DNA of 44,293 bases, from the NCBI GenBank assembly GCA_964367355.1, contig CAYIWY010000007.1, forward strand, positions 37,961 to 82,253, given 5' to 3'. The translations under genes were made by a program, and so were the position numbers. The DNA is from an uncultured Gammaproteobacteria bacterium (GTDB lineage: Bacteria; Patescibacteriota; Microgenomatia; Woykebacterales; RBG-16-39-9b). Positions 10,663 through 16,865 of this stretch are shown piece by piece. The notes under the pieces were generated by a model. That model made no database searches. It had not been told where the DNA came from and saw only the letters and a program-made list of their open reading frames with translations. Numbering within the stretch: the first letter of the stretch is position 1; each line of letters opens with the position of its first letter.

Positions 10663-11472
10663 ATGAAAGATAAAACCATGGATTCTGCCTTGAAAGTGAA
10701 ATATTCAACAATAATCGCTGCTTTACTGCTTATCTTTAGCACTAACTTTGCTTTTGCTCAGATTAGTGATCAAATTGCCTACAGCGTCCAGTTAAATAAT
10801 CCGGACGCCTCTACTGGTCAAATCGTTAGCCAAACAGATGGGAAATATGCTCTTTCCACCAAAGAATATGATAGTGGAGTATATGGTGTGATAGTCAATG
10901 ATCCAGCAGTCTCGTTAAATCAAATTACAACCACGACAAAATATGTTGTTATCAACGGCCAAGCGAATGTGAGCGTTTCCAAGAAAAACGGCGACATCAA
11001 AGAAGGCAATTTAATAACTACTTCAAAAGACCTCGGAATAGGTCAAAAAGCTACAAAATCTGGACACGTACTCGGCAAGGCGCTGAGAGATTTTCCAAAC
11101 GAGACTGACAAAGGTGAAATTGGCAGTATTCCCATTTTAATTAATGTTAACTACAACCAAGTTTCCGCCCAATCTGAAAGTTTGACCCAAACCGGGCTTG
11201 ACCAAGTAACCAAAAAAGTTTCGTTGGCACTAGTCTCAGGAAATCTGCCGGATTTGCTCAAATATGTCTTTGCTCTCTTATTGGGATTAATTAGTTTCTT
11301 TGTTGGTCTTTACCATTTTGTAAAAAGCAACCGGACCGCAGTTGAGTCAATTGCCAGAAATCCAATGGCGAAGCATGATATCCAAAAGCAGCTGGTTATT
11401 GGAACTGCTGGCATTTTGGCGGTTTGTGGTATTGGTTTAGCAATTGGGGTTTTGATTCTGTTTTTCCTTTAG
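10663..11472 (+). CDS. Secreted beta-domain protein (paralogous to the fibre C-terminal domains) fused to a C-terminal F-ATPase c-subunit-like helical hairpin that has no membrane carboxylate
   Basis: The track ORF is 10645..11472 (GTG start). An ATG at 10663 (or 10678) gives a cleaner signal peptide, ..IIAALLLIFSTNFAFA/Q. The last 75 aa (nt 11245-11469) form two hydrophobic helices joined by AVESIARNPMAKHDI, which matches the R-(Q/N)-P loop of c subunits. The middle region (about nt 10852-11155) aligns with the C-terminal domains of ORFs 27969..32960 and 41313..42752. Confidence 0.75.
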   Translation: MKDKTMDSALKVKYSTIIAALLLIFSTNFAFAQISDQIAYSVQLNNPDASTGQIVSQTDGKYALSTKEYDSGVYGVIVNDPAVSLNQITTTTKYVVINGQANVSVSKKNGDIKEGNLITTSKDLGIGQKATKSGHVLGKALRDFPNETDKGEIGSIPILINVNYNQVSAQSESLTQTGLDQVTKKVSLALVSGNLPDLLKYVFALLLGLISFFVGLYHFVKSNRTAVESIARNPMAKHDIQKQLVIGTAGILAVCGIGLAIGVLILFFL

Positions 11473-11497
11473 AGGAGAAGGTTTATAGGAGGAAATT

Positions 11498-12097
11498 ATG
11501 TTGACAAACATTTTAATTTTTATTGCAATACTTACCAATATCGTGACTCTAGCTTTAGTGTATTTTCTTTTCAAAAAAAGTACTGAAAGTTCAAATACGA
11601 TTAAAACCAACGCTGCGTTTTTGGAAAATACTGAGAAGCAAATCGAAAGCTTGCAAAACCGTTTTAAAGAATCGTTAGAAAACATTATATCCAAAGACTC
11701 TTTAATGATCGAAAATACATCAAGTAACATCATCAAATACTATCAAGATACGGTCAATTCCCTGACCGCAAATTACAACTTCAACAGTCAAAAGTTGACG
11801 GAAAATCTAAACCTGGAGCTGAAGAAACGAGTCGATCAGTTAGCCACAATCGTAGCCGAGCAATCCGAGGAATCAAAAAAAGTTTTCAGCAGTGAAATAC
11901 AAAAAGACCTTGTCTTAATCAAAAGAGATTTGGCCAATTATAGTCAAGGAAAGTTTGCCCAAGTCGATGCTAAAGCTTATCAGATTATCTCGGAAACTGC
12001 TAAGAATACTGTGGGTAAAGTTATTAATATGGTCGATCACCAAGAGCTGGTTATGCAAGCCTTGGACGAGGCTAAAAAGGATAAGTTTTTTGGATGA
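11498..12097 (+). CDS. atpF: F-type ATPase subunit b-like (single N-terminal TM helix plus a long coiled coil)
   Basis: AGGAGG lies 5-10 nt upstream of the ATG. N-terminal helix ILIFIAILTNIVTLALVYFLF is followed by charged helical sequence. The stop overlaps the start of the delta gene (ATGA at 12094). The call rests on position in the operon and overall architecture, because the sequence itself is divergent. Confidence 0.6.
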   Translation: MLTNILIFIAILTNIVTLALVYFLFKKSTESSNTIKTNAAFLENTEKQIESLQNRFKESLENIISKDSLMIENTSSNIIKYYQDTVNSLTANYNFNSQKLTENLNLELKKRVDQLATIVAEQSEESKKVFSSEIQKDLVLIKRDLANYSQGKFAQVDAKAYQIISETAKNTVGKVINMVDHQELVMQALDEAKKDKFFG

Positions 12098-12597
12098 AAA
12101 AAGAATTTACGTTATTTACCACGGCAGTTTATGACACTAAAGGTTTATATCGCTTGATTGACCAGATTACCTCAATCAACAAAAACCTTTATCACAATTT
12201 GCCGGGAACGATTGTTAGTAAAACTAAAGGTCTTCTCGCGCCAAGTTTAGAGGCGATCTTTGGTTATATAGAAGAGGCGGGTTTAGAACCAGAAGGTGAC
12301 GGTGCCCAAAAACAATTTTTAGAACAAATCGTCACTGAATTAAAAGCAGTTCCACTGGTCAAGATAACCTTGGCTTTTGAACCGGATGATAGTTTTACCT
12401 CAAAACTAAATGAAACGATCAGTGCTCAGGCAGGGCAAAAGGTAATACTCGACATCAGTGTTAATCATCATATTGTTGCGGGAGCAGTGGTTGAGTACCT
12501 AGGAAGGTATAAGGACTACAGTTTGGAACCAAAAGTTGACCAGTACTTGAAAGAAACGGTTAAGAAAGAGATGTTAACCGAAAAGGAAAATATCTAA
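12094..12597 (+). CDS. atpH: F-type ATPase subunit delta (OSCP)
   Basis: 167 aa, located between the b and alpha genes. The C-terminal segment VILDISVNHHIVAGAVVEYLGRYKDYSL fits the delta/OSCP pattern (..GGi.v..g....D.S). Confidence 0.7.
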   Translation: MKKEFTLFTTAVYDTKGLYRLIDQITSINKNLYHNLPGTIVSKTKGLLAPSLEAIFGYIEEAGLEPEGDGAQKQFLEQIVTELKAVPLVKITLAFEPDDSFTSKLNETISAQAGQKVILDISVNHHIVAGAVVEYLGRYKDYSLEPKVDQYLKETVKKEMLTEKENI

Positions 12598-12619
12598 TTT
12601 CCACTCCGGGGGTGGAAAT
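12597..12619. repeat. REP-like hairpin (atttccac-tccgggg-gtggaaat) between atpH and atpA
   Basis: 8-bp perfect stem starting at the last base of the atpH stop codon. Its arm and loop are related to the hairpins flanking the RAYT gene. Confidence 0.6.
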
Positions 12620-12643
12620 ACGAGGCTAAAGAAATTTAAACAA

Positions 12644-15137: not shown

Positions 15138-15147
15138 GGAGGAATAG

Positions 15148-16521
15148 ATGGATAATGAAAATACAGGTTCAATAGTTTCAATCAGAGGGGATGTCATCGA
15201 GGTGAGTTTTGCTAAGGTAAAACCGAACCGCTTTGAGTTGCTTGCTTTTGTCGATGATCCGACTGTTAAGCTTGAAGTTTACTCTTCGACAAATAAAGAC
15301 ACCGTTTACTGTATCTGTTTTTCTAATCCAGGTAAGTTTTATCGTGGTGCCAAAGTGACTCGTTTGTTTCAAACGATTACCGTGCCAGTTGGTCCGGAAA
15401 TGCTCGGGAGAGTTGTCGATCTTTTTGGAACCCCACAAGATGGCCTTGGTCCGATAGAATCACGTCAGCTGCGGTCCATTTATGCACAGGCGCCGGGATT
15501 TTCTTCAACCAATATCACCCGGACAGTACTTGAAACAGGAATAAAAATTATCGATTTCTTCACGCCGTTTCTAAAGGGCGGAAAGATTGGTCTTTTTGGG
15601 GGCTCAGGGGTCGGCAAAACTATTATTCTCACCGAATTGATGCATAACACCGCTGTCTATCATAAAGGCATCTCGGTCTTTGCTGGGATCGGAGAGCGTA
15701 TTCGAGAAGCTCAGGAGATGATCGAGAATTTGCAGCAGAATAAAGTCTTGCCCAATGTTAGTTTGGTTCTGGGGCAAATGAACGAGCGGGCGGCAGTGCG
15801 TTTTCGAGCTGGGTATAGCGCCATCACCATCGCTGAATATTTCCGTGATCGGGAAAACCGCGATATTTTATTTTTCGTCGATAATGTCTACCGTCTAGTT
15901 CAAGCTGGCAATGAACTTTCTACTTTGCTAAACACAATACCTTCAGAAGACGGTTACCAAGCAACATTAACTAGTGATATTGGTCAATTTCAAGAGCGAA
16001 TTGTACCAACTACGGGGGGTTCGATTACTGCGATTGAAGCTATCTATGTGCCAGCTGATGACCTGACCGATTCTGGGGTTCAGGCGGTAATGCCTTATTT
16101 TGATAGTGTTGTTAGTTTATCCAGGTCTATTGCCGAAGAAGGTCGCCGACCGGCGGTTGACATTCTCAATTCGTCGTCAAGTTTAATCGAAGCTTCCGTT
16201 ATTGGTTTACCGCACTACGAAGCTTATCTTGAAGCAGAGAAGATTTTAACTCGTTACGTTTTCCTCGATCGAGTAGTTTCTATTGCCGGGGAGCAAGAAC
16301 TCTCTCCCGACGATCAACGAGTTTACGCCCGGGCAAAAAGAATCCTCAATTATATGACGCAGGATGTTCATATGACTGCTGATCAAACCGGGCGCCCGGG
16401 GGTCTACGTACCACGAAAGAAAGTAATTGAAGATGTCAGCGATATTTTGTCGGGAAAAACTGATGAGATCCCCCCGGAAAAGTTCTTGTACGTTAAAGAT
16501 ATAACATCAGTTAAGCCCTAA
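15148..16521 (+). CDS. atpD: F-type ATPase beta subunit
   Basis: Walker [18 protein letters not shown], the GERIRE catalytic segment, Walker [20 protein letters not shown], and ADDLTD. GGAGG lies 6 nt upstream of the ATG. Confidence 0.95.
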
Positions 16522-16527
16522 CAACAC

Positions 16528-16545
16528 GACAAGGACGGGCCTTGG
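16528..16545. repeat. Copy A of the caagg-N5-ccttg palindrome family (gacaaggacgggccttgg), between atpD and atpC
   Basis: The core caaggacgggccttg is identical to the copies at 40388 and 41186. Its 3' arm runs into the GGAGGA Shine-Dalgarno sequence of atpC. Confidence 0.6.
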
Positions 16546-16553
16546 AGGATAAA

Positions 16554-16865
16554 ATGGATATTGATGTAACAAAATTATCAACTGCTTCAAAATATAAGAT
16601 TGATCGACTGTTTGTCACGGTCTATTTAACTGATAAACTCGAAAAACCGGGCTTTAAAGGTTTCGCCAAATCCTTAACTTCGTTTGATAAAAAAGGAACA
16701 TTTGATGTTTTACCAATGCATGAAAATTTTGTCACTGAGTTTTCAAAGAATTTAGAAATAATTCCTGAAGAAGGGGAGAAGGTCTCTTATCAGAATTCAA
16801 CCGGAGTTATTGAAGTTGCCAATAATGTTGTCAGGGTTTTTTTGGAGGAAAAAAATAATCAATAG
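16554..16865 (+). CDS. atpC: F-type ATPase epsilon subunit, short form (beta-sandwich only)
   Basis: The track starts at TTG 16542. An ATG at 16554 sits 5 nt after GGAGGA, so I prefer it. GTFDVLPMHENFVTEF matches the epsilon motif G.fgiLp.H.p. At 104 aa it has no C-terminal helical hairpin. Confidence 0.75.
   Translation: MDIDVTKLSTASKYKIDRLFVTVYLTDKLEKPGFKGFAKSLTSFDKKGTFDVLPMHENFVTEFSKNLEIIPEEGEKVSYQNSTGVIEVANNVVRVFLEEKNNQ

Follow-up and report, generated by a model that had tools for sequence, protein, structure and literature searches.

Mycoplasmas carry 'F1-like X0' ATPases of Type 2 and Type 3, which serve gliding and MIB-MIP antibody cleavage (Beven 2012; Toyonaga 2021/2025; Berlureau 2026) and are encoded by clusters of seven genes that include a protein with 12 transmembrane (TM) helices and a small cytoplasmic protein, without b or delta (PMC3369863, PMC12994834). 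Their 'Protein 5' (MSC_0620/MMCAP2_0577/MMOB1650) combines a signal peptide with a large domain and a C-terminal pair of TM helices, and was described as having 'no known homolog' (PMC3369863, PMC12994834). In the Omnitrophota a 'symbiotic', non-respiratory F-type ATPase is encoded beside type-4a pilus genes, and its beta subunit was reported to group with the Saccharimonadia ones (Seymour et al., 2023). Among members of the candidate phyla radiation (CPR), the saccharibacterium Southlakia epibionticum has a canonical atpZ/I-a-c-b-delta-alpha-gamma-beta-epsilon operon (SEML1_0349-0358) in another genomic context, with an epsilon subunit of 141 amino acids (aa), this being the one ATP synthase gene set listed for its genome and dispensable in the cultured organism, whilst metagenome-assembled genomes (MAGs) of Saccharimonadia with 'only the F1 subunit' have been reported (PMC9166423) and some Saccharibacteria (clade G6) have lost their F1Fo entirely. 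A preprint on the Pam pilus of Mycosynbacter amalyticus names 'ATP synthase subunit' and 'tail fibre-like' genes as the most consistent neighbours of pam operons in Saccharimonadia and Microgenomatia, sees in the ATPase a neighbour with a metabolic role, the production of ATP, and suggests that a dedicated assembly machine is unnecessary (Troman et al., 2026; bioRxiv 10.64898/2026.03.03.709456). Here we describe an F1-like ATPase gene cluster on a stretch of 44,293 nucleotides (nt) of contig CAYIWY010000007.1 (assembly GCA_964367355.1, positions 37,961 to 82,253, forward strand; hereafter the window), in which the place of the rotor subunit gene atpE is taken by a fusion gene that we call X.

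The X protein ends in a diverged F-type subunit c hairpin from which the ion-binding carboxylate is absent, a conclusion that we regard as well supported. We further think it moderately probable that the cluster encodes a non-chemiosmotic, F1-like rotary ATPase whose membrane sector has been rebuilt around this derivative of subunit c. Seven closely spaced open reading frames (ORFs) on the plus strand fill positions 10645-16865 in the order X, b-like, delta, alpha, gamma, beta and epsilon, placed and packed exactly as the original prediction, made from the sequence of the window, had described them:

10663-11472, plus strand: gene X, a fusion of a secreted domain to a c-like hairpin, 269 aa from ATG 10663 (the public gene call)
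11498-12097, plus strand: candidate b-like peripheral-stalk gene, 199 aa, identified from its slot and architecture alone and preceded by an AGGAGG ribosome-binding site
12094-12597, plus strand: delta/OSCP-like gene, 167 aa, Pfam OSCP PF00213 at E 1.9e-6, above the gathering score
12644-14113, plus strand: alpha, 489 aa, Pfam ATP-synt_ab at E 1e-61
14113-14985, plus strand: gamma, 290 aa, strongly diverged, full-length Pfam match at E 1.3e-8 that stays under the gathering score
15148-16521, plus strand: beta, 457 aa, Pfam ATP-synt_ab at E 1e-64
16542-16865, plus strand: epsilon, 107 aa from TTG or 103 aa from an inner ATG at 16554, beta-sandwich only

Only 25 nt separate X from the b-like gene, with the AGGAGG ribosome-binding site inside them, the delta start overlaps the b-like stop by 4 nt and the gamma start overlaps the alpha stop. 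The order b-delta-alpha-gamma-beta-epsilon and the F1 catalytic motifs are shared with the canonical atpIBEFHAGDC operon; the cluster differs from it in having neither atpI nor atpB, and X instead of atpE.

Whether relatives keep X linked to an atpF-like gene was a test set out in the original prediction, and the linkage proved to be conserved at 12 of 12 related loci. These comprise five close relatives of the window's X (L001 and L003-L006), a deeper relative with 35% identity (L002), three Saccharimonadales loci (L007-L009), of which two lie on contigs of 936 kb and 962 kb, one CPR locus from groundwater (L010), a curtissbacterial one (L011) and a woykebacterial one (L012); each was examined with 10 kb to either side, giving 240 kb in total together with the window. 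At every one of the 12, X lies directly 5' of the b-like-delta-alpha-gamma-beta-epsilon series, down to an X identity of about 25-30%, and the loci span two CPR classes, Microgenomatia (e.g. Woyke- and Curtissbacteria) and Saccharimonadia. The orthologues with available DNA are no more than about 64% identical at the protein level, a distance at which saturation of synonymous sites is to be expected. The family is large: X has 41 close relatives and, with a mixed profile, at least 662 clusters at 90% identity, and when the hairpin profile was run exhaustively by HMMER against 1.84 billion representatives, 1133 clusters at 50% identity came back with E <=1e-3, 255 of them at E <=1e-10. The hairpin is always C-terminal in a protein of about 255-300 aa, shorter database entries being gene fragments. 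Three of the public MAGs with close X homologues (L003, L005 and L006) bear the labels 'uncultured Gammaproteobacteria' and 'Candidatus Nanoarchaeia archaeon', which look like mis-binning or mis-classification since the nearest named relatives of the beta subunit are Curtissbacteria and Woykebacteria.

Counted from ATG 10678, the start that aligns best with homologues, X has 264 aa (the ORF reaches back to GTG 10645), and residue numbers below follow this start. An AlphaFold2 model built on an alignment of 25 sequences had a mean pLDDT (predicted local distance difference test) of 80.8 and, together with the sequence, divides the protein as follows:

10678-10758, plus strand: Sec signal peptide (MDSALKVKYSTIIAALLLIFSTNFAFA, followed by Q), read from the sequence, with a modelled helix at aa 2-27
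10774-11145, plus strand: extracytoplasmic beta domain, aa 33-156 (about 125 aa), pLDDT about 80-90
11146-11238, plus strand: amphipathic helix of aa 157-187 that joins the ectodomain to TM1, modelled at lower confidence (pLDDT 62-65)
11245-11469, plus strand: c-subunit-like hairpin, aa 190-264, made of TM1, loop AVESIARNPMAKHDI and TM2, identified by profile, structure and shuffle evidence

The hydrophobic N-terminus is kept across the family and cleavage by signal peptidase I after AFA is probable. Because the signal peptide ends in AFA ahead of Q and Lys and Arg are abundant in the hairpin loop, the ectodomain is expected outside the cell and the loop inside, so that the topology should match that of a bacterial c subunit carrying an N-terminal extension, in agreement with the arrangement proposed earlier. 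The ectodomain has the conserved motif GDLITTSKDxGIGQKATKSGHVLGKAL. Compared by Foldseek with predicted phage protein structures in BFVD it gave E values down to 4e-12 at a root mean square deviation (rmsd) of 2.2-2.9 A over about 133 residues, the matches being mostly C-terminal parts of long fibre-like proteins, some of them annotated 'pre-neck appendage protein barrel'; in the PDB it matched lambda gpD-type capsid decoration proteins and pre-mature phi29 gp12 (Foldseek E 1e-4). A PHROGs scan of X and of the b-like protein gave marginal matches only. In this family the slot before the b-like gene is always occupied by X, with a signal peptide and a phage-fibre-like domain at the end that lies outside in an ordinary c subunit.

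The hairpin itself is modelled as two long helices, aa 190-227 and 229-263 in the window's protein and 211-245 and 247-280 in the Saccharimonadia X, and the modelled hairpins of both clades superpose on c subunits with Foldseek TM-scores of 0.6-0.9 (best 0.87-0.90, rmsd 1.1 A). Full-length X, searched against NCBIfam at E <=0.01, matched three families only, all of them F0 subunit c (TIGR01260, E 4.4e-5), and of the 24 hairpins of the window's clade every one was found by the NF005521 model for c (best E 8e-6) and 18 by TIGR01260 (E 3.5e-6), whilst the alt_F1F0 c model found four of them at E 0.004 or weaker. The original prediction had suggested a comparison with the Pfam c family PF00137. 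The NCBIfam c models and the profiles were significant and PF00137 was not, with other short TM families in Pfam (ETRAMP, UbiA, FixQ noise) scoring like it on X hairpins, so the claim of c homology rests on the NCBIfam models, the profile searches and the controls.

When a profile of the 24 hairpins was run against all PDB sequences at E <=10, every one of the nine matches was an F-type c subunit (best E 1.3e-3) and the alignments paired loop with loop and TM2 with TM2; a broader profile of 13 hairpin sequences gave c subunits as five of its six matches. The reverse search used a hidden Markov model (HMM) of ten well-known c subunits, whose sequences align as expected. Run on the 13 loci with every ORF of 45 aa or more included, at E <=0.01 it found only five X orthologues, those of the window (E 3.5e-7) and of L003-L006. 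Aligned with the same canonical set by hhalign, the hairpin profile gave a probability of 95.6% over 44 columns and 91.4% over 61 columns covering both helices. The real hairpin scored 29.4 bits in the shuffle control, a score that none of 6000 shuffles reached, the maxima being 16.5 bits for the 3000 that kept the compositions of TM1, loop and TM2 separate and 10.5 bits for the 3000 shuffled globally. Two sites of the hairpin deserve separate mention:

11356-11364, plus strand: codons of R227-N228-P229, the counterpart of the c-loop R-Q/N-P, aligned with RQP by HMMER and hhalign
11416-11418, plus strand: codon TTG of Leu247, at the position of the ion-binding Glu/Asp of subunit c in the HMMER and hhalign alignments

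The hand alignment that had first put a Leu at the conserved Glu/Asp position was thus reproduced by both programs, and the proposal of a c-subunit homologue lacking the carboxylate is upheld by the NCBIfam, PDB-profile, hhalign and shuffle results together. Loop R-N-P is invariant in 146 of 146 family members and none of the 146 has an Asp or Glu in the core of either TM helix. Mitochondrial c subunits carry an RNP loop as X does, and the X hairpin retains the loop that meets gamma and epsilon in real enzymes. With F-type subunit c (AtpE; TIGR01260/PF00137) X thus shares the two-helix hairpin, the cytoplasmic Arg-Gln/Asn-Pro loop, both termini outside, a gene directly before the b gene and profile homology over the loop and TM2, extending to both helices with the broader profile. 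It differs from this stand-alone protein of about 70-90 aa in being a fusion of 264-281 aa that carries both a signal peptide and a beta domain outside the cell, in the Leu that replaces Glu/Asp, in having no GxGxGxG motif, in falling below all curated cut-offs and in having no adjoining a subunit; since X misses the curated thresholds, it should not be filed as AtpE.

The Saccharimonadia X proteins (L007 9785-10630; L008 9923-10768; A7 consensus) have a looser, G/A-rich face on TM1. At the end of their ectodomain there is also a second 'ARNPLAK'-like motif, e.g. ISVEIAVARNPLAKSD, which resembles the hairpin loop IGRNPLSRKS and coincides with a weak extra match to the hairpin HMM; it could be the trace of an internal duplication, or chance.

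The F1 head appears catalytically competent, as had been proposed. Alignment with PDB beta subunits shows that beta has kept its Walker A (GGSGVGKT) and GERIRE, the Asp of Walker B and, as EQELSPDD, a DELSEED-like loop, and alpha has Walker A GDQKTGKT; the Arg-finger stretch of alpha is altered (see below) and its N-terminus, the delta-binding helix, is about 14 aa shorter than that of Bacillus alpha. All F1 subunits are below the NCBIfam equivalog cut-offs: alpha scores 394.5 bits against a cut-off of 484 for atpA and beta 453.9 against 462.85 for atpD, whilst gamma reaches 25 bits of 194 (TIGR01146), delta 19-29 of 57-172 and epsilon 17-27 of 67-164. Alpha and beta nevertheless score higher on canonical atpA/atpD than on the mycoplasma or alternate (N-ATPase) models. 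The OSCP match of delta is confined to its C-terminal half, and the Pfam match of epsilon covers aa 37-101 of 107, the C-terminal helical domain being absent in accordance with the earlier reading; epsilon is short at every related locus (88-111 aa), i.e. about 90-110 aa in X clusters against 141 aa in Southlakia. For the gene that the original prediction called b, position and architecture fit, with a single N-terminal TM helix followed by a long charged helical region. No homology to AtpF was detected in Pfam, NCBIfam or PDB, whether with the single sequence or with a six-sequence profile. Homology of the b-like protein to b was accordingly set aside as a claim, the six-protein profile having given only generic helical proteins in the PDB, e.g. 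apolipoproteins.

The cluster is best read as encoding a non-chemiosmotic, F1-like ATPase that would be analogous to the mycoplasma 'F1-like X0' enzymes. In both, a membrane sector that is not canonical goes with divergent alpha, beta, gamma and epsilon subunits, the bacterium is tiny and depends on a host, and there is a link to surface machinery; X and mycoplasma Protein 5, compared by description only, have the same architecture. The CPR cluster differs in having delta and a b-like gene and no 12-TM or small cytoplasmic protein, and mycoplasmas additionally keep a canonical Type 1 enzyme. Membership of mycoplasma Type 2/3 was rejected: on the MSC_0619/0618 and MMOB1660/1670 family models the scores were 241, 363, 335 and 347 bits, where cut-offs of 520, 570, 600 and 850 apply, and the cluster composition disagrees too; membership of the N-ATPases (alternate F1Fo) was rejected as well, alt_F1F0 alpha scoring 350 against 750 bits and beta 400 against 752. 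With the Omnitrophota ATPase the cluster has in common an F-type homologue judged non-respiratory, co-location with pilus genes and occurrence in ultra-small symbionts. The Omnitrophota account rests on alpha/beta phylogeny and gene neighbourhood, with no c-like fusion or membrane partner described, and the pili there are of type IV, as opposed to the Pam-type (chaperone/donor-strand) pilin-like neighbours of X clusters. The original prediction knew of no described system of such a kind, and in this it was wrong, since the mycoplasma Type 2/3 X0 and the Omnitrophota enzymes are related systems in the literature; after Seymour et al. (2023) the idea of a non-respiratory F-ATPase in such bacteria already exists. 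For the c-derived fusion and the missing carboxylate, literature searches found no description.

How such an enzyme might work can be sketched. Oligomers of X would form the membrane base beneath gamma and epsilon, and an alpha3beta3 head would hydrolyse ATP, with the catalytic motifs of beta intact and an epsilon that lacks the inhibitory domain, whilst delta and the b-like protein would hold the head. With no carboxylate and no a-subunit half-channels, neither H+ nor Na+ would be moved. The energy of ATP would instead cross the membrane as torque or conformational change and reach a crown of ectodomains, which may act on or anchor surface structures, such as the tail-fibre-like and giant proteins that share the module or the Pam-type pili encoded nearby; these structures would be of the sort that episymbionts use for host contact. 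With no proton-channel gene in the operon and a carboxylate-free replacement of c, what is annotated as 'ATP synthase' in many of these ultra-small bacteria is probably a machine that spends ATP at the cell surface and not one that conserves energy. A bolder version, in which a rotary F1 turns or flexes an extracellular crown of carboxylate-free c-like hairpins with tail-fibre-like domains and so docks, assembles or moves host-gripping surface fibres such as Pam pili, adhesins of the tail-fibre-like sort or giant surface proteins, we consider unlikely.

Several points weigh against the non-chemiosmotic ATPase proposed here. The delta and b-like stalk is retained, and in known enzymes both serve to brace F1 against subunit a. 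Homology to c, though significant, is weak, with TIGR01260 scores of 23.4-26.9 bits against a cut-off of 43.95 and all curated cut-offs missed; PF00137 is not significant on single sequences, one of the 24 hairpins reaching E 0.094. The GxGxGxG packing motif is gone from TM1 (LLKYVFALLLGLISFFVGLYHF), as the earlier description of the hairpin, including its two helices free of Asp and Glu, had it. In the window's clade the Arg-finger region of alpha reads GRHPAV and not GxRPAx, the Arg being displaced by one position, whereas canonical and Saccharimonadia alphas have G-x-R-P-A. The link to pili is one of gene neighbourhood only, adjacent in four loci, at 6-9 kb in one and at 17 kb in the window. 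Ring formation by X, its contact with gamma and epsilon and the mechanical output remain predictions, the absence of an a subunit is extrapolated from the loci to whole genomes, and it is possible that X-bearing genomes have a split atpB-atpE locus elsewhere.

This last point leads to the main rival: the operon would be split and the enzyme an ATP synthase of the ordinary kind that is coupled to ions, a reading which we judge improbable though it carries appreciable weight. Canonical atpB and atpE would lie elsewhere in the genome, the enzyme would still make ATP from, or pump against, a proton gradient, and X would be an accessory protein, a minor subunit without the carboxylate in a mixed c-ring or an assembly or anchoring factor. 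The kept delta and b-like stalk genes would then be explained, as would an alpha and beta nearer to canonical atpA/atpD than to any atypical family, and a complete canonical operon does exist in some Saccharibacteria (Southlakia). There are known cases both of split atp operons and of carboxylate-free hairpins in rotor rings, which counts in favour of this rival: such hairpins sit in the working rotor rings of Acetobacterium woodii (c1) and of V/A-type proteolipids. Those rings, unlike X, are not known to lack carboxylate-bearing hairpins altogether, work against an a subunit and are not known to carry an extracellular domain. Against this rival, the window gave no ATP-synt_A (PF00119) match and no a-type motif in any membrane protein, the canonical-c HMM matched only X there, in line with the claim that atpB and atpE are missing from the window, and no canonical c or a-type gene occurs in the 240 kb around the 13 X loci. 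X stands precisely where atpE would be, the divergence of gamma, delta and epsilon is extreme, with epsilon truncated at every locus, F1-only Saccharimonadia MAGs have been reported, and the Southlakia operon has a different context and is the single ATP synthase set of its genome.

Alternatively, X could be a mere neighbouring surface protein outside the ATPase, with a generic two-helix anchor whose likeness to c is due to convergence or chance. That Pfam is blind to the hairpin and scores other short TM families alike on single sequences, that every c-model score is under its curated cut-off and that the ectodomain also occurs in unrelated large surface proteins would all be compatible with this. 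We nonetheless find it very unlikely, given that X is the gene immediately 5' of b-like at each of the 12 loci, in classes between which its identity is only about 25-30%, with a gap of 25 nt in the window that holds a ribosome-binding site, that RNP is invariant in all 146 members, that the forward profile search gives only c subunits and the reverse only X, and that no shuffle matches the real score.

The slimmest chance of all goes to a decaying remnant, functionless and heading for loss after respiration was lost and Fo degenerated: the subunits below equivalog cut-offs, the dispensable ATP synthase of a cultured saccharibacterium and the G6 Saccharibacteria without F1Fo would suit it, but the seven-gene order is intact at every locus examined in two CPR classes, there are about 1,100 hairpin clusters at 50% identity, motifs are strictly conserved in both X domains, the catalytic motifs of beta are intact, and the gain of a signal peptide and ectodomain is innovation, not decay.

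Should the non-chemiosmotic ATPase be right, it bears on how CPR metabolism is reconstructed. Reconstructions of CPR/Patescibacteria routinely count such genes as complex V and infer that a proton gradient, perhaps taken over from the host, drives the formation of ATP; a carboxylate-free c derivative combined with the lack of an a subunit would, if true, mean that this inference fails for a very large group of CPR. Re-use of the rotor subunit of the most conserved energy enzyme as a scaffold for extracellular domains would be a clear case of its kind, mycoplasma Protein 5 might likewise derive from subunit c, and there would be a concrete, testable molecular link from an F1 motor to the cell surface, beside the newly described Pam pili. 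If even the crown-turning version were true, an ATP synthase would have given rise to a transmembrane torque transmitter, and what thousands of CPR genomes are credited with as 'ATP synthase' would be unable to use a proton gradient.

The surroundings of the cluster contain further genes for large or secreted proteins, two of which share the ectodomain of X:

2-10162, minus strand: giant ORF of at least 3387 aa, extending past the window start and divergent from X, no Pfam match
27969-32960, minus strand: 1663-aa protein with the X ectodomain module at about aa 1373-1489 (hmmsearch E 1e-22)
33300-33926: IS200-like Y1 transposase gene, between the gene of the 1663-aa protein and the pilin-like cluster
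34167-36996, minus strand: three secreted proteins, of 326 aa (WxLIP_PGBD-like), 369 aa and 232 aa, orthologous to the L012 cluster directly after epsilon
41313-42752, minus strand: 479-aa protein with the X ectodomain module (hmmsearch E 1e-17)

The trio at 34167-36996 probably consists of Pam-type pilus genes, being distant relatives of the pilin-like genes that in Saccharimonadia come after the ATPase and a 'tail-fibre-like' membrane protein. The Pam pilus locus of CPR and the X cluster thus share a genomic neighbourhood; the X protein is not mentioned in the preprint of Troman et al. (2026). The module of the 1663-aa protein is 47.6% identical to the ectodomain of the L008 X (BLASTP), and a large protein of the woykebacterial locus (L012 16779-19389, minus strand) has the same combination of integrase SAM-like domains and X ectodomain. 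The phage-integrase SAM-like domains of the 1663-aa protein itself are N-terminal (Pfam E 7.8e-21), and its gene has a GC content of 0.49-0.50 in surroundings of 0.40-0.43.

Homologues of the giant ORF lie upstream of X in L001 and L012. Rfam and tRNA scans of 2270-10600 were empty and the reading of this stretch as rRNA or non-coding DNA was ruled out, as it is part of the giant minus-strand ORF; the plus-strand ORFs at 75-2270 are shadows of the same ORF. The N-terminus of the giant ORF (…YNRLRYYIKIGLLP…) resembles a DNA-binding motif of the helix-turn-helix/MerR type, odd for a presumed surface protein, and in L002 a separate MerR gene stands upstream of X in the same place.

Straight after the ATPase, at 17006-26938, comes a signalling block of a STAS-like protein, two response regulators, Cache/CHASE4/PAS sensors and a histidine kinase, which also holds a 766-aa fn3/Ig/AhpC-TSA surface protein and much of which is found downstream of the ATPase in L001 too. 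A 138-aa protein of unknown function encoded at 39891-40307 is kept in L010 (12020-12463) and L011 (7810-8253) at 36-42% identity, its gene sitting 1-1.5 kb after epsilon at both of these Microgenomatia-like loci.

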